Part shown: positions 30,481-49,696 of the stretch, piece after piece | Position numbering within the stretch: the first letter of the stretch is position 1 | Layout of the letters: each line of letters starts with the position of its first letter | Made by a program: the position numbers and the translations under genes | Notes under the pieces: model-generated | What the model saw: the letters and a program-made list of their open reading frames with translations, nothing else | Told to the model about the DNA's origin: nothing | The model's database searches: none | Assembly: GCA_964653025.1 (NCBI GenBank) | Contig: CAZZBZ010000004.1 | Coordinates: 4,173 to 68,172, forward strand | Reading direction: 5' to 3' | DNA: 64,000 nt | Source of the DNA: an uncultured Verrucomicrobiota bacterium | Lineage (GTDB): Bacteria; Verrucomicrobiota; Verrucomicrobiia; JABWAM01

Positions 30481-30503
30481 TTTGGGAAACTGTGTGGAAC
30501 CGA

Positions 30504-32320: not shown

Positions 32321-34159
32321 TTGGCCTTGAGTGTCCCCCAAGCCATGAGCGACTTTTTTGGGAAAGAGGTGCTGGACCGCGTCCGCATGGCGAACGACAT
32401 CGTGGAGATCGTCCAGTGGCTCGGGGTGCCCCTGCGCCGCGCGGGAGCGAGCCACAAGGCGCTCTGCCCTTTTCACAAGGAGAAGACCCCCTCCTTCCAC
32501 GTCAACGCACGCACGCAGGGCTTCAAGTGTTTCGGCTGTGGGGCCGGGGGCGATGTCTTTAAATTTCTCATGCTCCGCGAGGGACTCGACTTCCCGACGG
32601 CGGTGCGGCGGCTCGCGGAGCGCGCGCAAATTGTTCTTCCCGAGAGTTCGGGTTCCCCCGGCGACCGCGGCCCGACGCGAGAGCGGCGCGAAAAACTCTA
32701 TGAGGCACTCTCAAAGGCGCGCGACTGGTATCACCTCCTCCTGATGCGCGACCGCCGGGCGAATGCCTCGCGGCGCTACCTGCGGGATCGCGAGTTCAGC
32801 AGCGTGGTGGCGAAGGAGTACCGCCTCGGCTACTCGCCCGGGGATGGCGACGGGCTTGTCGAATGGGCGACCGGCCATGGGATCGAGGCCGCAGTACTCG
32901 AGGAAGCTGGACTCGCGCTGCACGGACGATCGGGGTTCTTCGACCGATTCCGAAACCGTCTGATGATCCCGATCGCCGACGACTTCGGACGGATCGTCGG
33001 CTTTAGTGCTCGCCTGCTCGACCAGGGAGCGAAGGAAGCTAAGTACATCAACTCTCCCGAGACCCCGGTTTTTCACAAGGGTCGCCTTCTCTTCGGCCTC
33101 GACCGTGCGAAGCGCGTGCTCCAGGAGCGCCGTTCGGCCCTTCTCTGCGAGGGCCAACTCGACTGCATCCGCTGCCAGTCCGCCGGCCTCGGCTGGACGG
33201 TGGCCCCGCAGGGGACTGCACTCACCGAGGACCAGGCACGCATCCTGCGCCGCTACGTGGACGAGGTGGTGCTCTGCTTCGACGCCGACCCCGCCGGGCA
33301 GGAAGCGACGTGGCGCAACGCGGGCACACTCATCGCCGCCGGGCTCTCGGTGAAAGCCGCCACGCTTCCCAAGGGAGAGGACCCGGATAGCCTCATCCGC
33401 AAGCAGGGCGCCCCCGCGATGGAGAAGGCTGTCGCCGCCGCCACCGACATCTTTGAGCACCGCGCCCTGGCACTTCGGGGACAACTGGACATGCGCAATC
33501 CGAGAAACCATCGGCGAGTCGTTGAGCACATTACCCCGCTCCTCTCCCTCCTCGAAAGCGAGCCCGAACGCCTGCGCGCCGCCTCGAACGTCTGTGACAT
33601 TCTCGGAATCCAGCCGGATGCCTTCCTCGCCGAGTACGCCCGCCTGCGCCGACGCGCCTCGCGCTCCCCGGGGGCCTCCGAGGCAGAGGCGGCGGCCCCC
33701 TCCGCCTCACCCGAGTCCTTCCGCTGCGCCGACCGCCTCCTCCACATCGCGCTCTCGGAGGCCCCGGCCGCGCGCATGCTCGCCGCCCACCTCTCCATGG
33801 AGTGGCTGGAGGGCTACTCGCTCGCGGAGGTCTTCGCTCACGTGCTTGCCGCCTCCAAGAAAGGAGAGTGGCAGGAGGGTTGGGGCGGCGTACCCACCTC
33901 CATCGACGACGAGACCCGGGCTCTCCTCGCCTCGGTGCTGATGCTCCCCATGCCCGGCAATCGCACGGCCCTCGTGGCGGACATCCAGGACAACCTCCAT
34001 CACCTCGAACGGCAGCACCTCGTGCGCCAGCGCGACCTGGCGCTCGCCCGCCTGAAAGCCCCCGACCTTCCTCCTGAAGAACTTCAGAAACTCCAGTCTC
34101 ACCTGCTGACTGTAAAGAAAGGTCTCGAAAGACTTGCCAAAAGCCTTCGCTCCCGATAG
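32321..34159 (+). CDS. dnaG: DNA primase
   Basis: Zinc-binding domain [36 protein letters not shown] region ..LCEGQLDCI... ATG 32345 is an alternative start. Confidence 0.9.
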
Positions 34160-34202
34160 GCTGTTGAGTCCCAGTTTTCGGCTCTGCTCTCCCCGCCGCA
34201 GG

Positions 34203-36098
<1,896 letters not shown>

Positions 36099-37101: not shown

Positions 37102-38121
37102 ATGGCCAGGACCCGCGCAACCCGAAAACCCGGACGCGGCGAGACACTCGCCGCATGGAGCGTCCTCCTCGTCCTCGCCGTTATCGCCGCCGGGGTGGGC
37201 TGGTGCCAGTCCCACTTCAACCCTGCGATACACGCGATGGCCTTCGCCACCTCCGACACCGGCCTCGCAAAGGCGCGCACCGCCGCCCCACTCGATCTTC
37301 TCGAAAAATGGCCCGCAGGAATGAAACCCCTCGGCCCCGCCGAGCGCTTCGATGCCGTCACACTTTCCGATAAGATCGACGGCAAGGCCGAACTCTACTT
37401 CTCCGCCGGGTTCAAGGAACTCCGCTGTCAGCGCGTGGGCACTGCGGGCGGGGCCTCCGAGTGGATGGAGATCGAGGCCTTCGACATGGGCGAGCCTGCC
37501 AACGCCTTCTCCGTCTACAGCGTCCAGCGCCGCAAGACCGCGACCGACGCCGGGATCGGCGACCACTCCTACTTCGCGGGCAATGCCCTCTGCTTCGTTC
37601 ACGGACCGTTCTATGTGGAGGTCATCGCCACCGACGCACAACCCGCGCTCATGAAATCCGTCGCCGCAGCGGGACGGCGCTTCATCGAGGAGCACCCGGT
37701 CGCGCGAAAGGTGAACGTCGCCGACGACAAGGCCCTCTTTCCGAAGGAGGCGATCGTCCCCAACAGCTTCTCGCTCCTCGCAAGCGATGTCTTCGGCTTC
37801 GACCGCCTCGATCGCGTCTTTCTCTGCCGCGTGAAGGAGGGGAAGCAGGAGATCGCCCTCTTCGCCTCGCGCCGAGGTTCTCCCGCAGAGGCCGAAAAAC
37901 TCGCGGTGGACTACCGCGCCTTCCTCATCAAGGACTGCGGAGGCAAGGACGCGGGGACCGTCCCTCCGGTGCCCGGTTCCTCGATGATTTCCCTCGACGG
38001 GATGTTCGAGGGGGTGTTCTCCTCCGGATCCGTGATGGCAGGCATTCATCAGGCCCCAAGCCGCGAGGCCGTGCTTCGCTGGGCGGAGCGCCTCGCCCGC
38101 AGCATCGAGGGGAAGAAATGA
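37102..38121 (+). CDS. Hypothetical membrane-anchored protein (N-terminal signal anchor), no recognised domain
   Basis: MARTRATRKPGRGETLAAWSVLLVLAVIAAGVGW..; consistent coding composition; 339 aa. Confidence 0.6.
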   Translation: MARTRATRKPGRGETLAAWSVLLVLAVIAAGVGWCQSHFNPAIHAMAFATSDTGLAKARTAAPLDLLEKWPAGMKPLGPAERFDAVTLSDKIDGKAELYFSAGFKELRCQRVGTAGGASEWMEIEAFDMGEPANAFSVYSVQRRKTATDAGIGDHSYFAGNALCFVHGPFYVEVIATDAQPALMKSVAAAGRRFIEEHPVARKVNVADDKALFPKEAIVPNSFSLLASDVFGFDRLDRVFLCRVKEGKQEIALFASRRGSPAEAEKLAVDYRAFLIKDCGGKDAGTVPPVPGSSMISLDGMFEGVFSSGSVMAGIHQAPSREAVLRWAERLARSIEGKK

Positions 38122-38295
38122 TGCAGTTATCCAGGTTCACGGTTAAGGGGTTCAACGGTTCAACGGTTGGAAAGAGTATATGGAACGAGCATTTTGACGG
38201 TTTCGAGGCGTGGCAATTGAAGCGAGAACTGACTTGCAGTGTGAAATCAACCGCTGAACCGTGAACCGCGGAACCCAACAACCCGTCCGACCAGT

Positions 38296-39303
38296 ATGAG
38301 CCACCCCGAACCCCATCCCCACCACGGCCACCCCGCCTCACGGCGGGAGTTTATCCGCCGCAGCGCACGGCTTGCGGCCGCGATCGCCGCCACCGGCACC
38401 GTCGGCGGATGGCTCTGGAACCGGCACCCGCCCGGTGATTTCTCAAAGGCTTCCGCCCCCCCGCCCCTCCCCGATTTCTCCGTGCGCGATGGCGGCCCTG
38501 CGATGAGCATTGTCACCGGCGGGGAGCGTGCGACGGCCCTCCAGCGCGGCCTCGCCGCACTCGGCGGGATCGAGCGCTTCGTGAAACGCGGCGATCGCGT
38601 CCTTCTCAAGGTGAACGCCGCGTTCGCCACGCCGGCGGCCCTTGGAGCGACGACCCACCCCGACCTCGCCGCCGAACTCATCCGCCTCTGCCTCAAGTCC
38701 GGGGCCGCCTCGGTGATCGTCACCGACAACCCGATTAACTCCCCCGAGAGCTGCTTCGCCCTCTCGGGCCTCGGGGAGGCGACGGCCCGCGCCGGAGGGC
38801 GCCTGGTCGTCCCGCGCGAAACCGATTTCCTCCCCGCGACCGTCCCCGGCGCGCGTCTTCTCCGCGACTGGCCGGTCCTGCGGCGCCCGTTCGAGGGGGT
38901 GAACAAGCTGATCGGGGTCGCCCCCGTGAAGTCGCACAACCGCGCGGGGGCCTCGATGACGATGAAAAACTGGTACGGCCTCCTCGGGGGACGGCGAAAC
39001 CAGTTTCACCAGGACATCCACGGAATCGTCTCGGAACTGTCCGCACTCGTCCGTCCGACCTTCGTGGTCCTCGACGGCACGGCAAGCATGATGTCGAACG
39101 GGCCCACGGGCGGCTCCCTCGACGACCTCAAGGCCACGCGCACGATGGTGGTGAGCACCGACATGGTCGCCGCGGACGCCTTCGGGATCTCGCTGCTCGA
39201 CCGGTCGCCCGCCGACCTGCCCTACCTCCGCATGGCAGCCGAACGCGGCGCCGGCCGCCTCGACTACGAGGCCCTCAAGCCCATCCGTCTCTCTCTTTCC
39301 TAA
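38296..39303 (+). CDS. DUF362-domain protein with twin-arginine (Tat) signal peptide
   Basis: SRREFIRRSARLAAAIAATG (Tat motif); DUF362-like core (..KVNAAF.., ..VVLDGTASM.., ..MVVSTDMVAADA..). Confidence 0.8.
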   Translation: MSHPEPHPHHGHPASRREFIRRSARLAAAIAATGTVGGWLWNRHPPGDFSKASAPPPLPDFSVRDGGPAMSIVTGGERATALQRGLAALGGIERFVKRGDRVLLKVNAAFATPAALGATTHPDLAAELIRLCLKSGAASVIVTDNPINSPESCFALSGLGEATARAGGRLVVPRETDFLPATVPGARLLRDWPVLRRPFEGVNKLIGVAPVKSHNRAGASMTMKNWYGLLGGRRNQFHQDIHGIVSELSALVRPTFVVLDGTASMMSNGPTGGSLDDLKATRTMVVSTDMVAADAFGISLLDRSPADLPYLRMAAERGAGRLDYEALKPIRLSLS

Positions 39304-39340
39304 GCCCATGATTTTCTCCTCCATCCACGCGAACAACGAG

Positions 39341-39466
39341 GCCGCTCATCGGAGCCTCGATTCTGATCGGGGCGATGAGCGGCTCCATGCCCTGCATTCC
39401 GTTTTCGTGTGTTTCGTGTACTTCGTGGTAATCCTTCTGAATCCGTGTCCATCCGTGGCTTCCCCC
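39341..39466 (+). repeat. Structured repeat, copy A (divergent): 11-bp-stem hairpin + CGTG heptamer direct repeats + CATCCGTGGCTTC terminus, ending 9 nt before the polyferredoxin ATG
   Basis: gccgctcatcg-21nt-cgatgagcggc ..ttcgtgtgtttcgtgtacttcgtgg.. ctgaatccgtgtccatccgtggcttcc. Confidence 0.6.
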
Positions 39467-39474
39467 TCCTCACC

Positions 39475-41424
39475 ATGAAGATCCTCACGGCCCGCCGGAT
39501 CGCCCAGGTGTTCTTCCTCGCGCTCTTCACGTGGCTCTGCGTCGTCGCCACGGTCGGCACCGCCCCGTGGCAGTGGCGCGGATGGCCGATCAACGCCTTC
39601 CTCCAGTTCGACCCACTCGTGGCCGTCGGCACCGCCCTCAGCACCCATTCCCTTTACGCCGGGCTCGCCTGGGCACTCGTCACGGTCGCGGTGACGATGC
39701 TTCTCGGGCGCGTCTTCTGCGGTTGGGTCTGCCCCTTCGGCACGCTCCACCAAATCCTTGGCTGGCTGGGCCGACGGCGCTCTCGCCCGAAGGAAAAGGT
39801 GGAGGTAAACGAGTTCCACCCGGCGCAGCGTTTCAAGTACTACCTCCTCTTCGCGATGCTCGCGGCGGCTTCGGGAAACCTCGCGGTCAATCTCCTCCGC
39901 TCCACGCGTGAACAGCCTACCTGGGCGGTCGCGGCGATCGCCGCCGGATGTGCCATCGCCCTTTTCCTCGGTTTGCGGCGGTTCGTCTCAGGCCCCTCCA
40001 CCGCGGCCGCGCTCACCGTGCTCCTTGTCGGGGCCGGCGCGCTCGTCACCGGTCGCATTTCCACGGACCGCGCGATCGTCGCCTCACTCCAGACCGGACT
40101 GCTCGACCCGATCCCCCTGCTCCACCGCTCCTTCACGGTCGTGGTCCTGCCGCTCGCCGACTCGGCCTTCGGGCGAATCTGGAGCGCCCCCCGCCATTAC
40201 GAAGGGGCATGGTTCATCGGCGCTCTTTTCGCCGCCTTCCTCGCGCTCAACCTCTGGATCCCGCGCTTCTACTGCCGCTTCCTCTGCCCGCTCGGCGCGC
40301 TCCTCGGCGTCTTCGCGCGCACCACCCTCTGGTCGGTCGGGATCAAGGAGGCCCTCTGCACCGACTGCGCCTCCTGCGACCGCAACTGCGAGGGGGCCTG
40401 CACCCCGACCGGCCCGCTCCGCGTCAGCGAGTGCCTCATGTGCATGAATTGCCTCGAGGACTGCCCCACCTCGAAGCCGATCCACTACCATCCGCGCCCA
40501 TCGAGCAGCGGCGAGGAAACGGGCCACGGGGTCACCCGCCGCGGCTTTCTCATCTCGGTCGCGAGCGGCCTCGCCGCCACGCCCGCGCTCCGCCTTGGGG
40601 GACTCGTTGGCCCGACCTGGTCCGCCCAACTCGTCCGCCCTCCGGGCGCCGTCGATGAGGAGGAGTTCCTCGCGCGCTGCATCAAATGCGACCAGTGCCT
40701 CCGCGTCTGCCCCACCAATGTCCTCCAGCCCGCCGGCCTCTGGGCGGGGATCGAGGCGTTCTGGACCCCGTTCCTCAACAACCGCATCGGGACGAGCGGC
40801 TGCCAGGTCAATTGCATCGCCTGCGGAAACGCCTGCCCCACGGGCGCGATTCGCCCGCTCACCCTCGATGAAAAGCAAGGGAAGGGCGACTTCGCGGGGC
40901 GCGGACCCGTCCGCCTCGGCACCGCTTTCGTGGACCAGGGGCGCTGCCTCCCATGGGCCATGAACCGCCCTTGCATCGTCTGCGAGGAGAACTGCCCCAC
41001 CACGCCGAAGGCGATCTGGGTGGACACCACCTTCCGCGCGGTGCGCGACGGGACCCTTGCGATCGCCGCCGTCGAGGGCGACACCTTCCGCTTTGCAACC
41101 GGGGGACACGCCCTCCCCCCGGGCCGCTACGCGAGCGGGGACCACTTCTGCCTCGCCGAGGGGGACCCTGCCCCCCGGAGGATCGTCGCGAACACCGCGG
41201 ACACGGTGACGTTCGCCCCCGCTCCCGGCGGGAAGAAACCCCCGGCACCCGGCACCCGCGTGGAGATCCAGGTGCGCCTCCAGCGCCCCGTGGTGGAAGC
41301 CGAGCGCTGCATCGGCTGCGGAATCTGCGAGCACGAATGCCCCGTGAGCGGCCTCCGCGCCATCCGCATCACCGCCGAGGGCGAGACCCGCAGCGCCTCC
41401 CGCTCCCTCCTCGCCGGGCGCTGA
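39475..41424 (+). CDS. Membrane-bound polyferredoxin, NapH/MauN/RnfB-like 4Fe-4S binding protein
   Basis: TM segments with FCGWVCPFGTL and FYCRFLCPLGAL motifs plus multiple CxxCxxCxxxCP ferredoxin motifs (CIKCDQCLRVCP, CIACGNACP, CIVCEENCP, CIGCGICEHECP). Confidence 0.8.
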   Translation: MKILTARRIAQVFFLALFTWLCVVATVGTAPWQWRGWPINAFLQFDPLVAVGTALSTHSLYAGLAWALVTVAVTMLLGRVFCGWVCPFGTLHQILGWLGRRRSRPKEKVEVNEFHPAQRFKYYLLFAMLAAASGNLAVNLLRSTREQPTWAVAAIAAGCAIALFLGLRRFVSGPSTAAALTVLLVGAGALVTGRISTDRAIVASLQTGLLDPIPLLHRSFTVVVLPLADSAFGRIWSAPRHYEGAWFIGALFAAFLALNLWIPRFYCRFLCPLGALLGVFARTTLWSVGIKEALCTDCASCDRNCEGACTPTGPLRVSECLMCMNCLEDCPTSKPIHYHPRPSSSGEETGHGVTRRGFLISVASGLAATPALRLGGLVGPTWSAQLVRPPGAVDEEEFLARCIKCDQCLRVCPTNVLQPAGLWAGIEAFWTPFLNNRIGTSGCQVNCIACGNACPTGAIRPLTLDEKQGKGDFAGRGPVRLGTAFVDQGRCLPWAMNRPCIVCEENCPTTPKAIWVDTTFRAVRDGTLAIAAVEGDTFRFATGGHALPPGRYASGDHFCLAEGDPAPRRIVANTADTVTFAPAPGGKKPPAPGTRVEIQVRLQRPVVEAERCIGCGICEHECPVSGLRAIRITAEGETRSASRSLLAGR

Positions 41425-41431
41425 CCGCTTA

Positions 41432-41507
41432 CCCGAATCAGAAGCCACGGATGAAACACGGATTAGACACGGATAGCGCCAATCCCGCCACAACGGGATT
41501 GGCGCAC
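41432..41507 (-). repeat. Structured repeat, copy B (reverse orientation)
   Basis: The reverse complement reads ggtgcgccaatccc-gttgtggc-gggattggcgc tatccgtgtctaatccgtgtttcatccgtggcttctgattcgg. Confidence 0.75.
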
Positions 41508-41861
41508 CACGCAACTACCCACGAGATCATCGGGGCCGCGTTCGAAGTTCATCGCGAACTTGGCCACGGGTTCCTTGAGCGCGTCTATCAGCGCGCCCTC
41601 CTTATCGAACTCCAAAAGCGCGGAGTCCCTGCTGAATGCGAGCACAAGCTGTCGGTTTGCTACAAAGGTACCGTGGTGGGCGAGTATCAGGCCGACCTTG
41701 TTGTCGCGGGCAAGGTGATCGTCGAGTTAAAGGTCGCCCACGAGTACAACCCCTCCGACGAAGCTCAACTGTTGAACGAGTTGAAGGCGACCGGCATGAA
41801 GGTCGGAATCCTCCTCAACTTTGGCCGCGCAAAAGTCGAGTTCAAGAGAATGGTGCTGTGA
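41451..41861 (+). CDS. GxxExxY family protein (TIGR04256-like; PD-(D/E)xK-related small protein)
   Basis: THEIIGAAFEVHRELGHGFLERVYQRAL (GxxExxY motif) ..YQADLVV..IVELKV... The tracked ATG lies inside repeat copy B, so the true start may be downstream. Confidence 0.75.
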   Translation: MKHGLDTDSANPATTGLAHHATTHEIIGAAFEVHRELGHGFLERVYQRALLIELQKRGVPAECEHKLSVCYKGTVVGEYQADLVVAGKVIVELKVAHEYNPSDEAQLLNELKATGMKVGILLNFGRAKVEFKRMVL

Positions 41862-41906
41862 TCCATGGACCCTGATCGCTTCGGAGCGGTTTCTCCGTGC
41901 AATGGA

Positions 41907-41980
41907 GTGCGGCGATTCCGTGTAGCGGAATCGCCGCGTCTTCCTCCGATCCGTGTCCATCCGTGGCTTCTGATTCTGCC
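41907..41980 (+). repeat. Structured repeat, copy C (forward)
   Basis: gcggcgattcc-gtgtagc-ggaatcgccgc gtcttcctccg atccgtgtccatccgtggcttctgattctgcc. Confidence 0.75.
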
Positions 41981-42119
41981 TCTGAACTCCCCTTGCCAAA
42001 TCAACCCCTTCGCGGTCCGCTTTGCCTTTTTCGGATGGACACGCGCACACCGCCGGGCGGATATAGGGACGGTCTTCGCGAATCCCAAATCACGTTTTTA
42101 AAAAACAGGAGCACTCCCT

Positions 42120-43358
42120 ATGAAAAGCCATAAGAAATCCATGACGCGTCGTGACTTCTTCCGGGCCGCCGGCGTGGCGGGCCTCGGAACCGTGCTCCTT
42201 CCCCGCATGGCGTGGGGACAAGATCCCGCGCCGGCCACGGGGGCCACCCCTGCCGCCGCGGGCACTGCCGCGGTCGTCGCCGCGGCCATGTTGCGCCGCA
42301 AGTTTGGCAAAACCGGCGTCGAGGTTCCGATCCTCTCGATGGGCGGGATGTACGACATCCCGAACAACCAGCACATGCTCCGCCAAGCCATCGACCTCGG
42401 CGTCACCTACTGGGACACCGCCGCGGGCTACAGCAACGGCCAGAGCGAGGTTGGCATCGGGATGTTCTTTGAGAAGAACCCCGACGAGCGAAAAAACATC
42501 TTCCTCGTATCGAAGGCCTCGGGCGGCCCGACCCCGGACGCGATGACACGCCTCCTCAACCAGTCGCTCGAGCGGATGAAGACCGACCACGTGGACCTCT
42601 ACTTCATGCACGGGATGAGCGGTATCGCCCAGGTGGACAAGCCGGAGATCAAGGCGTGGGCCGAGAACGCGAAGAAGGAGGGCAAGATCAAGCTCTTCGG
42701 CTTCAGCACCCACAGCAACATGGAGCAATGTCTCATGGGCGCCTCCAAGCTCGGTTGGATCGACGGGATGATGATCACCTACAGCTACCGCAATATGAAC
42801 ACGCCGGAGATGAAGGCCGCGATCGACGCCGGCATCGCCGCCGGCATCGGCCTCACCGCGATGAAAACCCAGGGCAAGGGCCCCGCGGACGATTCCGCGC
42901 TCGGCACGTTCACCCAGAAGGGTTTCACCCCGGGCCAGGCGAAGCTCAAGGCCGTTTGGGAGAATCCGCAGATCTCCGCGATCTGCTCGCAGATGCCGAA
43001 CGTGAAACTCCTCAAGGAGAACGCCGCCGCGGCGATGGACAAGACCCAGCTCGCCGGGGCCGACCGCGCCGCGCTCGCGCGCCACGCGGAGGACAACTGC
43101 GAGGGCTTCTGCGCGGGCTGCCGTCACCTCTGCGAGGGGGCAATCGCCGCCGCCGCGCCCGTGCAGGACGTGATGCGCTACCTCATGTATCACCGCCATT
43201 ACGGGATGCAGGGCGAGGCGCGCGCGATGTTCGCCTCCCTGCCCGCCGACGTGCGCGACCGCCTCGCAGCGCTCAACTACTCCGCCGCCGAGCGTGCGTG
43301 TCCCCATCACCTCCCCATCGCAAGCCTCATGCGCGAAGCCTCCGGCCTCCTCGCTTAA
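42120..43358 (+). CDS. Tat-exported aldo/keto reductase with a C-terminal Cys cluster (CX3CX2CX3C)
   Basis: MTRRDFFRAAGVAGLG (Tat); AKR core (GVTYWDTAAGYSNGQSE.., ..HVDLYFMHG..); C-terminal EDNCEGFCAGCRHLCEG. Confidence 0.85.
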   Translation: MKSHKKSMTRRDFFRAAGVAGLGTVLLPRMAWGQDPAPATGATPAAAGTAAVVAAAMLRRKFGKTGVEVPILSMGGMYDIPNNQHMLRQAIDLGVTYWDTAAGYSNGQSEVGIGMFFEKNPDERKNIFLVSKASGGPTPDAMTRLLNQSLERMKTDHVDLYFMHGMSGIAQVDKPEIKAWAENAKKEGKIKLFGFSTHSNMEQCLMGASKLGWIDGMMITYSYRNMNTPEMKAAIDAGIAAGIGLTAMKTQGKGPADDSALGTFTQKGFTPGQAKLKAVWENPQISAICSQMPNVKLLKENAAAAMDKTQLAGADRAALARHAEDNCEGFCAGCRHLCEGAIAAAAPVQDVMRYLMYHRHYGMQGEARAMFASLPADVRDRLAALNYSAAERACPHHLPIASLMREASGLLA

Positions 43359-43447: not shown

Positions 43448-44284
43448 ATGGCACCTCCTCACTCCCTTGGTGTGCGGATTTTTTTTCGGGCCCGGGGACT
43501 CATGCTCTCCCTCCTCAGTATTTACGCCATGCTCGGGGTGGCGCTCTGGCTGCTCGGTGACCGCCTCGCGCACCACCCACCCCACGGCGAAGCGAAGCGC
43601 CTGCCCGAAGAGATCGCCCTCCGCGCGTCGGACGGCGTGGCGCTCTCGGGCGTGTGGCTCCCCAACCCCTCGGCGGATGCGACGCTTCTCCTCAGCCACG
43701 GCAACGGCGAAAACCTCGACCACCTGCATTCGTTTCTCGGCGAGCTCCACGACGCAGGCTTCTCCGTCTTCTCATACGACTATCGAGGCTATGGCCGGAG
43801 CGAGGGACGACCCACCGAAAAAGGAGTCTACCGCGACATCGAAGCCGCATGGCGTCACCTCACCGGATCGCTCGGTGTGCCGCCCTCCCGTGTCATTCTC
43901 CTCGGCCGCTCGATCGGGAGCGGACCGACCCTCTGGCTTGCCTCCCGTGAAAAGCCCGGTGGGGTGATCCTCGAAAGCGCCTTCACCAGCGGCCAGCGGA
44001 CGCTCTTCCCCGTCCCGATCTTTCCCTTCGACCAGTTCCCCAACCTGAAACGGGTCCGGGACCTCCACTGCCCCCTCCTTGTCATCCACGGCCTGAACGA
44101 CCGCATCATCCCCGTCCGCCACGGTCGGGAGTTGTTCGCCGCGGCACCGGAGCCGAAGTTCGCCCTCTGGGTCGAGGGTGCCGATCACAACGATGTTTCC
44201 GGCGTTGCCCCCGAACTCTATTTGAAAGCGTTGCGGGATTTTGGCAAAAGGGTGGTGGGCGCGGCCGACCGCCCCTCCTTGTGA
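43448..44284 (+). CDS. Alpha/beta hydrolase (S9/BAAT-like), N-terminal TM anchor
   Basis: ..LLSHGNGEN.., GRSIGSG (nucleophile elbow GxSxG), ..LLVIHGLNDRIIP.., ..GADHND. Confidence 0.8.
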   Translation: MAPPHSLGVRIFFRARGLMLSLLSIYAMLGVALWLLGDRLAHHPPHGEAKRLPEEIALRASDGVALSGVWLPNPSADATLLLSHGNGENLDHLHSFLGELHDAGFSVFSYDYRGYGRSEGRPTEKGVYRDIEAAWRHLTGSLGVPPSRVILLGRSIGSGPTLWLASREKPGGVILESAFTSGQRTLFPVPIFPFDQFPNLKRVRDLHCPLLVIHGLNDRIIPVRHGRELFAAAPEPKFALWVEGADHNDVSGVAPELYLKALRDFGKRVVGAADRPSL

Positions 44285-46470
44285 CCTCCGCCCTTCGCCT
44301 CGCACTCAGCTTATACCGCCGCTTCCTCCTGCGTTTCCGGGTCATCGGGGCCACGCGCCTTCCCGACGGCCCCGCCCTCCTCGTCGCCAACCGCGCCTCG
44401 GCGCTCGACGCCCTCGTCCTTTCCACCGTCTTCCCCCGCCCCGTGATCCTCGTCGGAGGCCCCGCCCGCCCGAAAGGCGTTCTCCAGCAAACCCTCGCAG
44501 ACCTCCTCGACCTCCGCACGACCGGGGAAGACCCCCTCGCCGACCTTGAGAAGGCCGCCCACGAAGCGATCGCGGGGCGCGCCCTCGTCCTCGTCCTTGC
44601 CGACCCCCAACCCACCCATCCGCCCTGCCCCTTCGAACTCCGCGACGGCGTGAAACTGGCCGCGCAACAGAAGCTGCTCCCGGTCGTGCCCGTAAACACC
44701 GACTCGTTCTGGGCCGGAACCCTCCGCTTTCTCCGCGGCCTGTCCCCGTGCCATTTTGCCGGCGCCTGCCGACGGGCCACGATCCGCGTCGGCAAGGTCC
44801 TCCCCGCGGGCAGAGCGAGTTTCCCGATCCTGCGCCAGGAACTCACCGACCTCGACGAGTTCGGGCTCGCGGCACGCACCGAGATCAATGGTCACCTCGC
44901 GTGGTCCTGCCTCGTCTCGCTCTCTCGCAAGCCGTGGCGCGAGTTCATCGTGGACCGCGTGCCCACCCGCAGGGCCCTCTCCCGGGGGAAGACGCTCGCG
45001 GTCGCCATCGCCCTCTCCCGCCGCTGGCGGCACTCGCTCCCCGGACGACGCGTTGGCGTCGTGCTCCCCCCCGGCCTCGGGGCCACCGTGGCCAATCTCG
45101 CCCTCATCCTCGCGCGCCGCGTGCCGGTCAACCTCAACTTCACACTCGGGGCCGAGGCCGTGCGCGCCTGTTTCCGCAAGGCCGGCATGCGCCGCCTCGT
45201 CAGCGCGGGCGCGCTCCGCGAGCGCTTCCCGAACTTCCCCTGGCCCGCCGACACCCTCGATATCTCCGCCGAGATCCGCGCCTGCCCGCGCGCCGCCATC
45301 CTCTTCTGGTTGGTCCTCGTCTGGATCCTACCCGCGCGCCTCCTCGCCGCGCTGCTCCGCGTGCCGCGCACCGGCGGGCGCGAGGAGGCCGCCCTTCTCT
45401 TCACCAGTGGCAGCGCCGGGGAACCCAAGGGGGTCGCCCTCACCCACCGCAACATCCTGGGCAATGTCGGCCAGGTCGCCGCGGTCGGCTTCATCCATGA
45501 AACCGACACGATGCTCGCCTCGCTCCCCGTCTTCCACAGCTTCGGGTTCACCGTCACCCTCTGGTACCCCGTCCTCCGCGGCGTACGGATGGTCACCGTC
45601 CCCTCCCCGCTCGAGGTGAAGACGATCGCGGAGGCCATCCATGACGAGAAGGTCACCCTCTCCTTCGGCACCTCCACCTTCCTGCGCCCCTACCTCAAGC
45701 GCGCGGAACGCTCCCAGCTCGCCTCCCTCCGCTTCGTGGTCGCCGGCGCCGAGAAGCTCGCCCCCGACCTCGGGCGCTCGTTTGAGGAAACCTTCGGCGT
45801 CCGCATCCTCGAGGGTTACGGCCTCACCGAGACCACCCCCGTCGCCAGCGTAAACCTCCCCGACCCCGTGGACATGACCCGCAAGACGAGCCCCGGCTGG
45901 AAGCTCGGCTCCGTCGGCTGGCTCCTCCCCGGCGTCACCGCGCGGATCGTCCATCCCGAGACCGGTGCCCAACTCGACCCAACCGCCACCGGCATGCTCT
46001 GGCTCCGCGGGGTCAATGTTTTCGAGGGGTACCTCGGCGACGTCGAACGCTCCCGCCAGGTCCTTCGCAACGGGTGGTTCATCACGGGCGACATCGCCCG
46101 CTTCGACGAGGACGGCTTCCTTTTCATCGAGGGCCGCCTCTCCCGCTTTTCCAAAATCGGCGGCGAGATGGTCCCGCACGGCACCATCGAGCAAAAGATC
46201 ATCGACCTCTTCGGCGAGCGCGATGCCGAGCAGCAACCCTTCGCCGTGGTCGGCGTGCGCGACGCAACCAAGGGGGAGGCCCTCGTCCTCCTCGCCGCGC
46301 ACGAGATCACCACGGATCAGGTGCGAGAGAAGCTTCTCGCCGCGGGGTTTCCCCCGCTCTGGGTCCCGCGGTACCTCTGCCGGGTCGGGAAGATCCCCAC
46401 GCTCACCTCCGGCAAGCTCGATGTCCGGGCCTGCGAGGAACTCGCCCGCAAGGCGCACCCTCCGGGCTGA
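44281..46470 (+). CDS. Bifunctional Aas-like protein: N-terminal PlsC-type acyltransferase domain + C-terminal acyl-[ACP]/CoA synthetase (AMP-binding)
   Basis: GTG start overlapping the upstream stop (GTGA). LLVANRASALDALVL (HX4D position, with Arg replacing His); FTSGSAGEPKGV (AMP-binding motif I); ..GYGLTETT.., ..WFITGDIARFDEDGFLFIEGR... Confidence 0.85.
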   Translation: MTSALRLALSLYRRFLLRFRVIGATRLPDGPALLVANRASALDALVLSTVFPRPVILVGGPARPKGVLQQTLADLLDLRTTGEDPLADLEKAAHEAIAGRALVLVLADPQPTHPPCPFELRDGVKLAAQQKLLPVVPVNTDSFWAGTLRFLRGLSPCHFAGACRRATIRVGKVLPAGRASFPILRQELTDLDEFGLAARTEINGHLAWSCLVSLSRKPWREFIVDRVPTRRALSRGKTLAVAIALSRRWRHSLPGRRVGVVLPPGLGATVANLALILARRVPVNLNFTLGAEAVRACFRKAGMRRLVSAGALRERFPNFPWPADTLDISAEIRACPRAAILFWLVLVWILPARLLAALLRVPRTGGREEAALLFTSGSAGEPKGVALTHRNILGNVGQVAAVGFIHETDTMLASLPVFHSFGFTVTLWYPVLRGVRMVTVPSPLEVKTIAEAIHDEKVTLSFGTSTFLRPYLKRAERSQLASLRFVVAGAEKLAPDLGRSFEETFGVRILEGYGLTETTPVASVNLPDPVDMTRKTSPGWKLGSVGWLLPGVTARIVHPETGAQLDPTATGMLWLRGVNVFEGYLGDVERSRQVLRNGWFITGDIARFDEDGFLFIEGRLSRFSKIGGEMVPHGTIEQKIIDLFGERDAEQQPFAVVGVRDATKGEALVLLAAHEITTDQVREKLLAAGFPPLWVPRYLCRVGKIPTLTSGKLDVRACEELARKAHPPG

Positions 46471-46718
46471 GTGAGGCTGGAGGATGGAGGATTCATCGGG
46501 GAGCACACGCGGCCCGCGTGTTGAGGTGGGCGACCCGCCCGCCTCGTCCGAAGATCGATTCGGCGAGCCGCCGAATCGCGCACGCGAGCCGCGTGCACTC
46601 CCCAGAACGTCATCGAGTGCATCGGTGCTCCACCGATGGGTGGGGATGGTCTCGCTCTGGAGAAGCCGCTTGCGCGAGGATCAGGACTGCCCGACGCCCC
46701 CGTCGCCCGACTTTCCGC

Positions 46719-47870
46719 CTACTTCGCGAGGAACGCGCGGATCTTCTCGCAGACGTAGTCCACCTCGGGCTGCGTGATGGACGGGAAGATGGGCAGCGAC
46801 AGGATCCGGTTCACGAGCTTTTCGGTGACCGGCAGCTTCGGGAGATCCTTGTAGAGCGAGGTCATCGCCGGCTGCTGGTGGTTCGGCACGGGATAGTGGA
46901 CGCCGGTCCCAATCCCCTGCTCCTTGAGGAACTTCGCCATCTCCTCGCGCTTCTCCACCTGGACGACGAACATGTGGTAGACAGGGACGCAGCCGGGTTT
47001 CTCAATTGGCAGTTGCACCTGGGGGAGGCCCTTGAGCCGCTCGCGGTACCAGCCCACTGCCACGCGGCGCTTCGCGTTGAAGGCGTCGAGGTGCTTGAGC
47101 TGCTCGCGGCCCACCGCCGCCTGGATCTCGTTGAACCGCATGTTGAACCCAACGATCTCGTGGAGGTACTTGTCCTTGCGCCCGTGGTTGCGGAGCATCT
47201 TCACCCGCTCCGCGATCGCGTCGTCGTTGAGCGTGAGGCAGCCGCCGTCGCCGAAGACCGTGAGGTTCTTCGAGGGATAGAAAGAGAAGGCACCGAAGGT
47301 CCCGAAGCTCCCGACCCGCCCGCCGTTCCAGGTCGCCCCGTGCGCCTGGGCGCAGTCCTCGATCCAGAAAAAGCCCTTCTTCTCCGCGATCGCCTTGATG
47401 CGGGCGATGTCCGCGGGATGCCCGTAGAGGTGCACCGGGATCATCCCGACCGTGCGCGACGTGATCTTCGACTCGAGGTCCGCGATGTCCACCGTATAGG
47501 TCTCGTCCACGTCCACGAAGACCGGCTTCGCGCCCGCATGGACGATCGGCTCGATGCTCGGGAACGCCGTGTGCGAGGGCACGAGGATCTCGTCGCCCGG
47601 CTTGAGCTTCAGCGAGAGGAGCAGGAGATGGACCGCCGAGGTCCAGTTCGAGGAAAGGACGCAGTGTTTCGTGCCGGTGTAGGTCGCGAGTTCCTTCTCA
47701 AACGCCTTGCACTCCGCGCCGAGAATGAAGTTCTCAGAATCCACCGCAGCGAGGATGCGGTCCTTGATGGTCTGGTCAATGTAAACGCGGGACAGGGGGA
47801 TTTTCACGGGCGCCTTGTATAAGGGGGAACGGGGCTTGCCGCAAGCCCCATCAGCCATCTCCAAATTCAT
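46719..47870 (-). CDS. DegT/DnrJ/EryC1/StrS-family PLP-dependent sugar aminotransferase
   Basis: ..FILGAECKAFEKELATYTG.., ..FSFYPSKNLTVFGDGG.. (PLP Lys region). The start is ambiguous: ATG 47870 or GTG 47807 (VKIPLSRVYID). Confidence 0.8.
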   Translation of the reverse strand: MNLEMADGACGKPRSPLYKAPVKIPLSRVYIDQTIKDRILAAVDSENFILGAECKAFEKELATYTGTKHCVLSSNWTSAVHLLLLSLKLKPGDEILVPSHTAFPSIEPIVHAGAKPVFVDVDETYTVDIADLESKITSRTVGMIPVHLYGHPADIARIKAIAEKKGFFWIEDCAQAHGATWNGGRVGSFGTFGAFSFYPSKNLTVFGDGGCLTLNDDAIAERVKMLRNHGRKDKYLHEIVGFNMRFNEIQAAVGREQLKHLDAFNAKRRVAVGWYRERLKGLPQVQLPIEKPGCVPVYHMFVVQVEKREEMAKFLKEQGIGTGVHYPVPNHQQPAMTSLYKDLPKLPVTEKLVNRILSLPIFPSITQPEVDYVCEKIRAFLAK

Positions 47871-47889
47871 CCATAGAGCCGCCCTGGGC

Positions 47890-48945
47890 TCACAATCCGT
47901 GCTCGATCGCCGCCTCGCGCAGGGCGAGAAAGTTCTCGAGCGGCACATCCTCGTGAAGTTCGGTGGATGACCCGACCATCAACCGCCCACCCGCGCCCTC
48001 GATCGCTCGGTGAACGGCATCCTTCACCTCCTGCGGTTTGCCAAACGGCAGGAGCTGGGAGACGTCGATGCCTCCCGCAAGGAAGAGATGCGGGTGCCGG
48101 CGATGGATCTCCGCGACGTCCATCCCCGCGAGAACCTCGATCGGGTTGAGCCCGTCGATCCCCGCCTCCACGAGCCCATCGAGGATCGGATAGAGGTTTC
48201 CGTCGGAGTGGAAGAGCACCTTGATCCCCTTGCGATGATAGGCCGCGGTCACGCGAGCAAGGCGGGCGAAGTAGTGCTTCTTGAACCACGCCGGGGCCAG
48301 GAGCGGCCCCGACTTGAACGCGATGTCGTCTCCCGCGAACACGGCCTCGATCCCGTGGCCCTCGGGAAGATGTTCGATCCACGACACCGATTCCACCGTC
48401 TGCCGTTCGAGGACCTCGTCAATGATCTCCGGGCAGTCCGCAAGGTAGTAGGAAAAGTCCTCCAGCCCCACTTCCCCGTAGGCACCCATCAGGCCAACCC
48501 CGCGCCCGGATGGGAAGAAGAACACCTCGCCGAGCCGGCGGCGATGGTCCGCCACGGAGGCCAGGAAATCCTCCATATCCCGCGCCTTCTCCTTCGTCCA
48601 GGCCGGATCGAAGGCGTCAAGTTCCTTCCTTTTGGCGGCCGCGTAGGCATCCGAGTCCGCGTAGTGCGCGTGCTCGTGCCAGACCGTCCAACGAAACTGC
48701 CGCAGTTGCCGCCCGTTGGGCCGGACACCCGTCCGCTCGCGCTCGGGCAGCCGAACGCTTGGTCGCGTAGCATCCACCGCCGGGGCAAAGGCGCGGAAGA
48801 CGACCTCCCGCGCATTTTGAAAATCGAGTTTCTCCCCGGCAAAATGGCTGATCACCGCGTCGTTTCGAAGCAGTTCATAGATCGGGGTGCGATCCGGCTT
48901 CTCTCCGCGCAACACCGCGCGGACGCGTTGGAGGGAGTCCTTCAT
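47890..48945 (-). CDS. URO-D-like family protein (second copy; corrinoid methyltransferase fold)
   Basis: MKDSLQRVRAVLRGEKPDRTPIYELL..; about 350 aa; paralogous architecture to 20460..21713. Confidence 0.8.
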   Translation of the reverse strand: MKDSLQRVRAVLRGEKPDRTPIYELLRNDAVISHFAGEKLDFQNAREVVFRAFAPAVDATRPSVRLPERERTGVRPNGRQLRQFRWTVWHEHAHYADSDAYAAAKRKELDAFDPAWTKEKARDMEDFLASVADHRRRLGEVFFFPSGRGVGLMGAYGEVGLEDFSYYLADCPEIIDEVLERQTVESVSWIEHLPEGHGIEAVFAGDDIAFKSGPLLAPAWFKKHYFARLARVTAAYHRKGIKVLFHSDGNLYPILDGLVEAGIDGLNPIEVLAGMDVAEIHRRHPHLFLAGGIDVSQLLPFGKPQEVKDAVHRAIEGAGGRLMVGSSTELHEDVPLENFLALREAAIEHGL

Positions 48946-49027
48946 GCGGCACCAAGTTTTACCGCCAAACGGTGTTCCCAACAATTACAATCGCCTCGCG
49001 TCACGCTCAAACCCTTGTCCTTTCCGC

Positions 49028-49585
49028 TCATGCCCCCCTGTCGCCGGTGGCTGTTCGATCGAGCTCCGCGTCGGCCACATGGGCGTATTGGGCCGAGAGG
49101 AAGGAGTGCGTTCCGTGGACACAATCCTTCGCGGCATTCATGGTCGAGAGATACTTCCGCACCGCACCGGCATATCGCGGATCGCCGAGGATCTGCGAGG
49201 CCTTGACCATACTGAAGAGGGCGGCGGCCCCGATGAGCGTGTAGGGCGTCCCCTTCGACCCCCCGTTGAGCCAGATACCGTCGGCGGGTTGAAGCCGAAG
49301 CATGAGGTCGGCCCACCGCCGCAGCCGATCGCAAAAATCGGACGGCCGCCGATCATCGCGAATCGCCCACTCGAGAAACGCCAGCGGCGCGAGCAGCCCG
49401 CTCCCAAAGCTGATGCTCTCGGGGCCCGTCAGACAGCTCGTGCCCGACATCGTTCCGGCCCCCGCCTGCCCCCCGAACCCGCCGTCGGGAAGCTGTGTCG
49501 CCAGGAGGCGCCCCGCCGTCTGGCGCGCGAAGTCCAGATAGAGCGGCTCCGCCGTGTAGTCCCACAACGCCATCAGGCACGTCAA
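49028..49585 (-). CDS. Hypothetical protein, possible alpha/alpha-toroid (prenyltransferase/LanC-like) fragment
   Basis: ..LQPADGIWLNGG.., ..KDCVHGTHSF.., Gly-rich GGFGGQAGAG. 185 aa, short for the fold, so possibly a truncated gene. Confidence 0.45.
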   Translation of the reverse strand: MTCLMALWDYTAEPLYLDFARQTAGRLLATQLPDGGFGGQAGAGTMSGTSCLTGPESISFGSGLLAPLAFLEWAIRDDRRPSDFCDRLRRWADLMLRLQPADGIWLNGGSKGTPYTLIGAAALFSMVKASQILGDPRYAGAVRKYLSTMNAAKDCVHGTHSFLSAQYAHVADAELDRTATGDRGA

Positions 49586-49696
49586 AGGGTAGGCGTCGCG
49601 CCCCAGTCAATCCGATTTTTAGAATATTTTTCAAATTTTCACGTTCATCAAGATCGGCCAAACCGCCGCGAATGGGGCAGCAGTCCAGAAGGGTGG

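Follow-up and report, generated by a model that had tools for sequence, protein, structure and literature searches.

A conserved four-gene operon predicted to encode a periplasmic redox enzyme around an aldo-keto reductase with a nickel-pincer-like His/Lys signature

Results

A four-gene operon conserved across phyla

Within the window, by which we mean the whole 64-kb stretch of DNA that was analysed, four plus-strand genes at positions 37102-43358 form an operon that encodes, in order, a DUF6599 protein, a DUF362 protein, a polyferredoxin and an aldo-keto reductase (AKR)-fold enzyme. Every feature that a preliminary description had reported for the DUF362, polyferredoxin, GxxExxY and AKR genes was recovered at its coordinates; the unit had been taken as 38296-43358, whereas its actual start lies one gene earlier. 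That first gene (37102-38121, plus strand; 339 aa; Pfam PF20244, E = 2.4e-38) encodes a protein with a signal anchor at its N-terminus and a domain predicted to lie in the periplasm. A search of DUF6599 for conserved Cys or His residues found none, no relative was found in the PDB and no paper in the literature, and the Pfam match was to its own family only.

Conservation was assessed in 80 genome loci, 60 of them informative (with enough upstream DNA) and 20 short. Comparing the linkage of the DUF362, polyferredoxin and AKR genes across genomes had been proposed earlier, and the linkage proved robust: the four-gene order, with DUF6599 upstream of DUF362, is kept in 56 of the 60 informative loci, and 18 of the 20 loci with too little upstream DNA agree with it. 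These loci span Verrucomicrobiota, Desulfobacterota, Fidelibacterota, Phycisphaerae and others, and their flanks are unrelated. Because the order is so widely kept among the informative loci, the operon genes are functionally linked across phyla. The polyferredoxin and AKR are present with DUF362 absent in two loci (L029 and L047), and some Desulfobacterales carry two to three tandem AKR paralogues behind a single polyferredoxin, which suggests that the paralogues serve as interchangeable catalytic subunits on a shared electron module. A fifth conserved gene was sought in a survey of the neighbours and rejected, since the commonest of these are generic or lineage-specific. Generic histidine kinases are the next most frequent (16 loci); WYL regulators, NifU/NifS and aldehyde dehydrogenase (6-8 loci) are lineage-specific.

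A lineage-specific GxxExxY insertion

Ahead of the AKR gene lies a lineage-specific insertion of approximately 579 bp (41425-42002, no strand assigned) that carries a GxxExxY/PDDEXK_3 gene (41451-41861, plus strand; TIGR04256, E = 6e-42). It is flanked by a perfect 19-nt inverted repeat (I2; 41435-41453 and 41958-41976). The repeat at the right end of the cassette recurs as a 22-nt copy (repeat family D3) in the DUF362-polyferredoxin spacer at 39441-39462 (no strand assigned), where a repeat search found it to be 100% identical to 41949-41970. The insertion was not found in the closest relative (L152) nor in any of the 80 genome loci. GxxExxY was on these grounds rejected as a component of the system, and its original description as an inserted cassette was upheld.

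A NapH-NapG fusion polyferredoxin with an internal Tat motif

The third gene encodes a polytopic polyferredoxin of 649 aa, a NapH-NapG fusion with two Pfam Fer4_5 matches (39475-41424, plus strand). The open reading frame covers 39409-41424, and comparison with orthologues placed the true start at 39475. Its NCBIfam matches are sub-threshold, both for NapG (E = 4.2e-22, 78.5 bits against a cut-off of 269) and for NapH (E = 1.9e-14, 53.4 bits against a cut-off of 234). The N-terminal part has NapH-like transmembrane (TM) helices with two Fer4_5 'CX3CP' motifs, then a cytoplasmic 2x[4Fe-4S] domain; the C-terminal part has an internal Tat motif, a weakly hydrophobic TM segment and a periplasmic NapG-like four-cluster domain. 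Several 4Fe-4S motifs were recognised in the protein. Both motif sets (the two CX3CP motifs and cytoplasmic 4Fe-4S motifs of NapH; the Tat signal and four 4Fe-4S motifs of NapG) are conserved in 63 orthologues. What had been called a NapH/MauN-type protein is of the NapH/NapG type, with its C-terminal half on the periplasmic side.

The internal twin-arginine motif, T-R-R-G-F-L (aa 354-359; 40534-40551, plus strand), directly precedes the last TM segment. S/T354 is present in 61 of the 63 orthologues and R/K355 and R356 in all 63; in the region of the last TM segment, G365 and P370 are invariant and R373 occurs in 61 of 63. Dual Sec-Tat insertion of this family, with a Tat-dependent last helix, was shown experimentally for PFD of delta proteobacterium MLMS-1 (Q1NSB0; Tooke et al., eLife 2017; PMC5449189), in a study that gave no partner or physiological role for the protein.

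The exported AKR has lost the canonical NADPH-binding residues and carries four invariant cysteines

The last gene (42120-43358, plus strand; PF00248, E = 3e-23) encodes an AKR-fold enzyme of 412 aa that is predicted to be exported by Tat. Its signal, with T-R-R-D-F-F-R at aa 9-15, looks cleavable (TRRDFFR...AWG). An RR-x-hydrophobic motif is kept in the first 40-45 residues of 114 of 120 homologues, so that the twin-arginine signal noted earlier is not a product of chance; some homologues also have a precomputed Pfam TAT_signal match. The (alpha/beta)8 barrel fold is present and the catalytic tetrad D99/Y104/K132/H164 is invariant. The canonical NADPH residues (S-N...Q...Y-S-P-L...I-P-K...R) are replaced by S-T-H...T...M-K-T-Q...I-C-S-Q, namely S196-T197-H198, T220, M248-K249-T250-Q251 and I288-C289-S290-Q291, with N294 at the Arg position; the canonical E-N pair is kept (E300-N301). 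Structure searches with an AKR model returned canonical AKRs only, and literature searches on COG1453 and on AKRs combining Fe-S and Tat found nothing relevant. A preprint on a [Cu-4Fe-4S] acetol dehydrogenase deals with an unrelated GMC flavoprotein and was set aside.

NAD(P)H is not available in the periplasm. An AKR could nevertheless pass through Tat with NAD(P) tightly bound, as glucose-fructose oxidoreductase does, and would then act as a self-contained periplasmic dismutase or oxidoreductase, the polyferredoxin, DUF362 and DUF6599 having a different function that is only co-regulated with it. The Tat export of NADP-loaded enzymes is precedented by that example, and the intact fold and tetrad and the retained E300-N301 pair would suit such an enzyme. 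However, the residues for the carboxamide (Asn, Gln), ring stacking (Tyr) and the 2'-phosphate (Lys, Arg) are all replaced, and the strict four-gene synteny across phyla, together with the tandem AKRs per polyferredoxin, favours a physical or functional complex. We regard a nicotinamide-loaded AKR as very improbable.

The C-terminal domain of the AKR (aa ~307-412) contains the putative metal-cluster ligands (43110-43301, plus strand): C331, C334 and C338 (43110-43133) and C394, which is followed by P395 (43299-43304). The set first proposed was C327-x3-C331-x2-C334-x3-C338. Its last three members are invariant, whereas C327 is present in only 59 of 121 and 18 of 88 family members, and C394 had been omitted. 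C331, C334, C338 and C394 (Cx2Cx3C...CP) occur in 121/121 and 88/88 sequences and in 42-44 of 44 wider representatives, a pattern which indicates that C394 is the actual fourth ligand of the putative cluster and that C327 is not part of it. C289 was rejected as a universal ligand, being found in only 24 of 44 members of the wider family. The domain has no Pfam match and fits no known Fe-S family; it is confined to the C-terminus of ~400-aa proteins (313 representatives of 50%-identity clusters) and is family-specific. It may alternatively be a structural Zn site or form disulfides.

Because the four-Cys set is invariant, a cofactor-loaded periplasmic AKR wired to the polyferredoxin appears a reasonable reading of the sequences. 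The earlier suggestion of a periplasmic AKR fed by something other than NADPH holds in this respect and in the loss of the NADPH residues; it had missed the His/Lys signature of the nickel-pincer-dependent AKR NphT. An Fe-S site alone would not account for hydride chemistry at the intact AKR tetrad.

A His/Lys pair aligns with the nickel-pincer site of NphT

NphT (PDB 9YEB; Semersky et al., Nat Chem 2026; PMC13524815) is an aldo-keto reductase homologue that depends on nickel-pincer mononucleotide (NPMN), which it binds through a His/Lys pair, H144 as the Ni ligand and K200 as the covalent tether. It is a cytoplasmic monomer of ~290 aa that shuttles hydride between sugars with no external electron partner (PMC13524815). 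Although the model structure searches did not single it out, NphT (9yeb) is the best solved sequence relative of the window AKR (profile search E = 8e-28; hhalign probability 99.4%), at an identity of only 26% and with a profile E-value that improves on that for canonical AKRs by no more than about four orders of magnitude. H198 and K249 (codons 42711-42713 and 42864-42866; 42711-42866, plus strand) are the equivalents of NphT H144 and K200 and were paired with them by two independent alignments (hmmsearch and hhalign); M248 pairs with I199 and S196 with T142. Both residues are conserved in 88/88 locus AKRs, and in the wider representatives H198 occurs in 43/44 and K249 in 44/44. The invariant His/Lys signature offers a concrete replacement for NADPH, in that a nickel-pincer cofactor may take its place. 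The NphT contacts W218/Y219 have no visible conservation in the AKR and E300-N301 is retained; for these reasons the protein could instead bind a dinucleotide form of the cofactor or a different cofactor.

A motif search of the 64-kb window found no lar genes. Among the 80 loci, larB, larC and larE adjoin the operon in two only, in L010 convergent with the AKR gene and in L060 divergent from the DUF6599 gene, in each case with scores above the NCBIfam curated cut-offs. Such adjacency in two independent arrangements is unlikely by chance (of the order of 1e-3, as a rough estimate). Two further loci (L089 and L091) have a Tat-signal AKR with the His/Lys motif beside larBCE. The reverse scan, starting from LarC in metagenomes, found the operon at 0 of 64 LarC loci.

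These observations bear on a model that dispenses with nickel, in which the Tat-exported Fe-S AKR would take electrons directly from the polyferredoxin and reduce or oxidise its substrate at the tetrad, with neither a nicotinamide-type nor a nickel-pincer cofactor and with another role for the His/Lys pair, such as substrate binding. It would fit the invariant Cys set, the conserved Tat signal, the missing NADPH-binding residues, the tight linkage to the polyferredoxin, and the lack of lar genes in the window and in 78 of the 80 loci. The Asp-Tyr-Lys-His tetrad, however, suits hydride transfer with a cofactor stacked above it, whereas a single Fe-S cluster is a one-electron centre and no hydride carrier; the invariant H198 and K249 lie exactly at the Ni-ligand and tether positions of NphT, and larBCE is directly adjacent in the two arrangements just described. 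We consider an AKR working with Fe-S alone unlikely.

DUF362 shows the LarA fold

The DUF362 gene (38296-39303, plus strand) encodes a protein of 335 aa (Pfam PF04015, E = 1.7e-37) with S-R-R-E-F-I at aa 15-20 (RR at aa 16-17) and a helix at 16-40, which probably form an uncleaved N-terminal twin-arginine signal anchor of the Rieske-like kind. As the RR-x-hydrophobic motif is kept in the first 40-45 residues of 120/120 homologues, the twin-arginine signal initially reported for this protein cannot be put down to chance. No Fe-S motif was seen in it. DUF362 shows the LarA fold and shares Pfam clan CL0471 with the LarA N-terminal domain, and LarA matches the DUF362 profile at E = 5e-5. It lies outside Pfam Lar_N (PF09861) and LarA_C, having matched PF04015 only, and no locus contains a LarA homologue.

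The segment S213-H214-x2-A-G-x-S-x3-K224...H238 resembles the 173-200 region of LarA, a register favoured by the Pfam profile coordinates, and would pair H214/K224/H238 with LarA H174/K184/H200 (in LarA a catalytic His, the tethering Lys and the Ni-ligand His) in a manual alignment without statistical support. In hhalign, the DUF362 alignment matched LarA at a probability of 0.2%, which is not significant; Smith-Waterman alignment scored below the shuffle mean and in a register different from the manual one; an HMM of DUF362 orthologues did not match LarA, and DUF362 has no evident equivalent of the catalytic His108 of LarA. Equivalence to the LarA active site at the level of residues would therefore be an inference, and we treat DUF362 as a candidate for a second nickel-pincer subunit or for a substrate-preparing epimerase.

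DUF362 might even be the real catalytic subunit, possibly with a nickel-pincer cofactor, leaving the AKR-like protein mainly to electron transfer by Fe-S or to substrate delivery. The fold and the LarA-like motif would be in keeping with such a role, as would Tat export in the absence of an Fe-S motif, which suggests another cofactor; fusions of DUF362 to Fe-S domains are reported in the literature to be common elsewhere. Against it stand the alignment statistics above and the AKR itself, whose complete tetrad and His/Lys pair are all invariant and which is the component that is duplicated and diversifying, while L029 and L047 have retained the polyferredoxin and AKR without DUF362. We judge catalysis by DUF362 to be quite unlikely.

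Discussion

The product of the operon appears to be a redox enzyme that is anchored in the membrane and faces outward. The linkage of the genes, the folds of the proteins, the conserved motifs and the lar adjacency in two loci are matters of direct observation. The best reading of them, to which we give about an even chance, is a periplasmic oxidoreductase linked to quinone that couples the hydride chemistry of a nickel-pincer cofactor to electron transfer through Fe-S clusters. The cofactor content of the proteins, the formation of a complex, the electron path, the substrate and the direction are what we infer in the scheme that follows.

The four gene products would form one membrane-bound redox complex facing the periplasm. 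The NapH-like helices of the polyferredoxin would be inserted by Sec, and its last helix and four-cluster NapG-like domain translocated by Tat, so that the protein could act as an Fe-S wire that connects the quinone pool of the membrane with the periplasm. N-terminal anchors would hold DUF362 and DUF6599 at the outer face, DUF6599 as a scaffold or anchor, and the AKR, already folded and loaded with its cofactor, would be exported by Tat as a soluble subunit. In place of NADPH it would contain a nickel-pincer nucleotide made by cytoplasmic LarB/C/E, tethered to K249 and with Ni on H198 as in NphT, and C331/C334/C338/C394 would hold an Fe-S cluster in addition. The substrate, of the carbonyl/alcohol type (an aldose, an alcohol or a hydroxy compound), would exchange hydride with the nickel-pincer cofactor at the tetrad, and the cofactor would be recycled in one-electron steps from the AKR cluster through the polyferredoxin clusters to menaquinone. 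The AKR probably passes electrons to the iron-sulfur wire; the oxidative direction would be favoured on thermodynamic grounds, and the reverse may be possible.

More tentatively, and with rather less confidence, the operon may represent a widespread, previously unrecognised respiratory-type class. Its members would be quinone-coupled periplasmic complexes with a covalent nickel-pincer nucleotide in an AKR barrel (possibly a second in the LarA-fold DUF362), in which substrate hydride is split into single electrons that pass by way of the AKR cluster and the NapG-like domain to the NapH-like anchor. The nickel-pincer enzymes known to us are cytoplasmic racemases and epimerases and, since 2026, one hydride-shuttling AKR; those characterised shuttle hydride internally or between substrates, and we know of none that exchanges electrons with Fe-S clusters. 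If true, our reading would extend the nickel-pincer cofactor to the periplasm and to catalysis linked to electron transport, provide the first nickel-pincer enzyme in net redox exchange with an electron-transport chain, and give the orphan Sec/Tat dual-targeted polyferredoxin family a physiological partner. It would assign functions to that family, to DUF362 and to DUF6599; for DUF6599 it is the first functional hypothesis, and for the very large DUF362 family a concrete, testable one. Hundreds of species carry the operon, among peat and soil Verrucomicrobiota and among sulfate-reducing or syntrophic Desulfobacterota, and it could therefore matter in anoxic carbon cycling, as an overlooked periplasmic route for oxidising or reducing sugars, alcohols or carbonyl compounds. 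Even with the nickel part wrong, there would remain a periplasmic AKR/Fe-S module of four subunits, strictly conserved and so far uncharacterised.

Comparison with known systems

Compared with canonical NAD(P)H AKRs (AKR14A1/YghZ, 4AUB; Tm1743, 5DAN), the window AKR has its cofactor residues replaced, is periplasmic by its Tat signal and has an extra Cys domain. With NphT it shares the AKR TIM-barrel, the same His/Lys positions, the conserved acid-base D and H, a hydrophobic residue that directly precedes the Lys, a Ser/Thr at the second position ahead of the His, the loss of canonical NADPH contacts as judged from sequence, and lar genes adjoining some loci. It is only 26% identical to NphT, adds the Tat signal and a C-terminal four-Cys domain of ~105 aa, and is tied by its operon to a membrane polyferredoxin, DUF362 and DUF6599, usually without adjacent lar genes. 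DUF362 has its fold in common with the lactate racemase LarA and the other nickel-pincer racemases and epimerases of its superfamily (PDB 5HUQ, 7S91, 9EIA), but is ~100 residues shorter, Tat-anchored on the periplasmic side and without a racemase context.

DmsABC and PsrABC are periplasmic respiratory enzymes of the complex iron-sulfur molybdoenzyme type. Like these three-subunit enzymes, the operon combines a catalytic subunit exported by Tat with a ferredoxin module of four clusters and a membrane anchor that interacts with quinone, a likeness that is one of functional analogy and not of membership. It differs in that the catalytic subunit is an AKR barrel with no molybdopterin subunit present, the four-cluster module and anchor are fused, and two additional subunits occur. 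Compared with the NapGH quinol dehydrogenase, the polyferredoxin falls far short of the curated cut-offs for NapG and NapH, and no nap genes lie nearby, either in the window or in the loci. Going by its published description, PFD has in common with the window protein the NapH-like helices with two CX3CP motifs, the cytoplasmic 4Fe-4S motifs and the NapG-like periplasmic domain, and both have a twin-arginine motif before a weakly hydrophobic, Gly/Pro-containing last helix that is followed by an Arg (PMC5449189). The window polyferredoxin has two extra, variable helices relative to NapGH and PFD, and in contrast to PFD its partners here are an AKR and DUF362.

A four-gene operon common to several phyla

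The window (G+C content ~65%) carries, on the plus strand, genes for a DUF6599 protein (37102-38121; PF20244, E = 2.4e-38), a DUF362 protein (38296-39303; PF04015, E = 1.7e-37), a 649-aa polyferredoxin (ORF from 39409, with the true start set at 39475 by comparison with orthologues), a GxxExxY/PDDEXK_3 protein (41451-41861) and an AKR (42120-43358; PF00248, E = 3e-23). The last four lie where the preliminary description had placed them, and the twin-arginine motifs that it had reported for DUF362 (S-R-R-E-F-I) and the AKR (T-R-R-D-F-F-R) are both present near the N-termini.

The order DUF6599, DUF362, polyferredoxin, AKR, with unrelated flanks, was seen on the contigs of three AKR homologues that were looked up. 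A scan of one genome per GTDB species with the AKR alignment then yielded 586 or more relatives, from which 80 loci were retained. These belong to Verrucomicrobiota (Opitutaceae, Limisphaerales and others), Desulfobacterota (Syntrophobacteraceae and Desulfobacterales; Desulfosarcina, Desulfonema, Desulfatirhabdium, Desulforhabdus), Fidelibacterota and Phycisphaerae; cultivable carriers include Desulforhabdus sp. TSK (L025) and Desulfosarcina cetonica JCM 12296 (L076). Among the 60 loci with 4.3 kb or more of upstream DNA, tblastn with the four window proteins recovered the complete ordered set in 56, and 18 of 20 shorter loci agree as far as their DNA extends. The proposed linkage of DUF362, polyferredoxin and AKR thus holds, although the unit also includes DUF6599. 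When all flanking ORFs of the loci were clustered, no fifth member emerged that was conserved. The unit is a four-gene operon common to several phyla. Exceptions are two Pseudomonadota-labelled MAG loci with polyferredoxin and AKR only (L029, L047) and two loci with the AKR alone (L031, L064); motifs are kept in all four AKRs, and that of L031 adjoins a HypD-like gene, as judged by eye from sequence.

The GxxExxY gene was in none of the 80 kept loci. Relative to the closest relative, L152 (AKR identity 85%), it occupies a clean ~579-bp insertion (41425-42002) directly 3' of the polyferredoxin stop codon, bracketed by a perfect 19-nt inverted repeat (GAATCAGAAGCCACGGATG; 41435-41453 / 41958-41976) whose left arm overlaps the GxxExxY start codon. 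The right end of the insertion recurs as a 22-nt copy at 39441-39462, inside the DUF362-polyferredoxin spacer. The insertion looks like a small mobile cassette targeting intergenic spacers. The ~115-nt spacer between polyferredoxin and AKR (42003-42119) is well conserved with L152 despite adjoining the insertion, in stretches such as GGTCCGCTTT..GGATGGACACGC..CGGGCGGATA.AGG, and could be a regulatory or 5'-leader element.

Putative AKR cofactor site

In an AF2 model (pLDDT 85), the protein folds as an AKR barrel with a helical extension at the C-terminus, and its catalytic tetrad D99/Y104/K132/H164 is invariant among homologues. Alignment with Tm1743 shows that the canonical cofactor contacts have been replaced: 'GVSNF' by G-F-S-T-H198, the carboxamide-binding Gln by T220, 'AYSPL' by A-M248-K249-T-Q, and 'IPK...R' by I-C289-S-Q...N. 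Of solved structures, the closest in sequence is 9yeb_A (profile E = 8e-28; hhalign probability 99.4%, identity 26%). This structure is of NphT, which a June 2026 paper introduced as the first enzyme of AKR fold with a nickel-pincer mononucleotide in place of NAD(P)H; K200 is the covalent cofactor tether, H144 a nickel ligand, the pyridinium stacks against I199, and T142 is in contact with polar groups (PMC13524815). The NphT paper makes no mention of Fe-S, Tat or periplasmic variants (PMC13524815). Profile alignment and hhalign agree in pairing H198 with H144, K249 with K200, M248 with I199 and S196 with T142, which places a His/Lys pair at the NphT nickel-ligand and tether positions. All 121 database homologues and all 88 AKRs from genome loci have both H198 and K249; among more distant full-length representatives they are kept in 43/44 and 44/44, respectively.

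The Cys4 cluster of the preliminary description, C327-x3-C331-x2-C334-x3-C338, is present in the window protein, but its first cysteine is kept in only 59/121 and 18/88 sequences. In all sequence sets examined, C331, C334, C338 and C394 are invariant; P395 comes directly after C394. C289 lies in the loop after beta-8, three residues before the position of the NphT phosphate-binding G248, and is invariant in close relatives, but within the wider family just 24/44 sequences have it. Pfam gave no match for the C-terminal domain (aa ~307-412). When 1.84 billion cluster representatives were searched exhaustively, 313 relatives were obtained, and in every full-length match the domain forms the C-terminus of a ~390-460-aa protein. 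As the Cx2Cx3C...CP set occurs in a Tat substrate linked to a polyferredoxin, it most simply indicates a putative Fe-S cluster. That the AKR works with this cluster alone, as the preliminary description had it, is unlikely, and that it is exported with tightly bound NADP, independently of the neighboring genes, is highly improbable: both readings face the invariant tetrad and His/Lys pair, the loss of the NADPH contacts and the strict synteny.

Polyferredoxin and its topology

Shared features of the 63 polyferredoxin orthologues are an N-terminal helix and two 'LDP' loops, after each of which comes a helix with CX3CP at its end. They also share a Cx2Cx2Cx3C...Cx2Cx2Cx3C domain, four NapG-type cluster motifs and an internal [ST]-[RK]-R-x-F motif, whose R/K355-R356 is present in 63/63. 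R356 is followed by a short, weakly hydrophobic segment in which G365 and P370 are invariant and R373 is kept in 61/63. Matches to NCBIfam NapG (E = 4e-22) and NapH (E = 2e-14) both fall far below the equivalog cut-offs. The layout is the same as that of PFD of MLMS-1, a NapH-NapG fusion in which Sec inserts the earlier helices and Tat then translocates the last helix and the downstream domain, as found by experiment (Tooke et al., eLife 2017, PMC5449189); no partner or physiological role was given for PFD (PMC5449189). Because of this homology, a periplasmic location is well supported as the predicted one for the NapG-like half of the polyferredoxin.

DUF362 and DUF6599

The twin arginine is kept in 120/120 DUF362 homologues, and no Ala-x-Ala site is found at the DUF362 N-terminus. 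This region (38296-38420, aa 1-45) weakly resembles the uncleaved Tat anchor of bacterial Rieske proteins (E about 0.1-0.2), and residues 16-40 are helical in the structure model. After the hydrophobic stretch comes a conserved W-L-W-D-R-H-P-P-G. With only two invariant cysteines, no Fe-S site is expected in DUF362. DUF362 and the N-terminal domain of LarA, the nickel-pincer lactate racemase, belong to one Pfam clan (PMC11770544), and LarA matches the DUF362 profile at E = 5e-5. The invariant S213-H214-N-R-A-G-A-S-M-T-M-K224...H238 resembles S173-H174-F-F-A-G-F-S-G-G-R-K184...H200 of LarA (sequence checked against 5huq), a register (S213/S173) favored by secondary-structure context and Pfam coordinates. 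Since neither hhalign nor Smith-Waterman gave a significant or consistent alignment of the two, nickel-pincer binding by DUF362 is offered only as a hypothesis.

Several Desulfobacterales have two or three Tat-AKR paralogues after one polyferredoxin, which suggests several substrates per electron module. Such tandem Tat-AKR-Cys genes are seen at L042 (6291-9001), L054, L057 (6867-8219) and L061, with His/Lys and Cys motifs kept in all. These AKR duplications, together with the lack of any supported active-site alignment for DUF362, make it quite improbable that DUF362 is the true catalytic subunit.

DUF6599, a small family that travels with the operon, has an N-terminal signal anchor and no conserved Cys or His, and no structural or literature lead for it was found. 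We infer that it may be an anchoring or scaffolding subunit.

Lar genes and genomic neighbors

Genes for nickel-pincer cofactor biosynthesis adjoin the operon at two loci. In L060 (Limisphaerales), 187 bp separate DUF6599 from larE, larC and larB, which are divergent and upstream of it; in L010 (Opitutaceae), larC, larB and larE are convergent with the AKR and lie downstream of it at a distance of 141 bp. Each of the six Lar proteins scores above the NCBIfam curated cut-offs. By a rough estimate that assumes a single lar cluster in a genome of about 4,500 genes, the chance expectation of immediate lar adjacency in 80 genomes is about 0.04. The operon was in 0/64 LarC-anchored metagenome loci, and a motif search found no lar genes within the 64-kb window. 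In two LarC-anchored loci (L089, 5434-6501; L091, 742-1740), larB-larC-larE is directly preceded by a gene for a 332-aa AKR that carries the NphT His/Lys motif (GITGH, IGMK) and a Tat-like signal (KITRRKFI) but lacks the Cys-rich C-terminal domain. Its sequence suggests a periplasmic nickel-pincer-type AKR lacking the Fe-S module; on this basis, these lineages seem to have Tat-exported nickel-pincer-type AKRs.

The window neighbors of the operon (27943-32264, 43535-50761) are unrelated to it. Upstream are GH30, homocysteine S-methyltransferase and B12-binding protein, and PfkB kinase genes, then DnaG (32321-34159) and RpoD (34134-36098); downstream are genes for an alpha/beta hydrolase, an Aas-like acyltransferase/AMP-binding fusion, DegT and a URO-D-like protein. 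Genes at ~51.9-62.3 kb resemble those of arsenic resistance (ACR3, ArsC, ArsR) and RND efflux, as judged from N-terminal sequence only. In subsets of Desulfobacterota loci (e.g. L021, L033, L041, L049, L063; L043, L055, L058), recurrent neighbors identified by eye are NifU/NifS-like genes (6-8 loci), an aldehyde dehydrogenase (7 loci) and, in 8 loci each, a WYL-domain regulator and a small multihaem cytochrome c. These probably reflect lineage synteny and could hint at substrate or regulation.

Proposed function and comparison with known systems

In the best-supported model, to which we give about an even chance, the operon would encode a membrane-bound periplasmic oxidoreductase with a nickel-pincer AKR wired to the quinone pool. 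The AKR tetrad would mediate hydride exchange between a carbonyl/alcohol-type substrate and the tethered cofactor, which would be recycled via the AKR cluster, then the polyferredoxin, to the quinone pool. Standard potentials are about -0.35 V for aldose/lactone, about -0.2 V for alcohol/aldehyde and about -0.07 V for menaquinone, and the oxidative direction would therefore be the easier one.

In our literature search we found neither this combination nor a nickel-pincer AKR with an Fe-S site or Tat signal described, and no function given for DUF6599. Each component is of a described kind, namely an NphT-type AKR (2026), a Sec/Tat polyferredoxin (2017) and a LarA fold.
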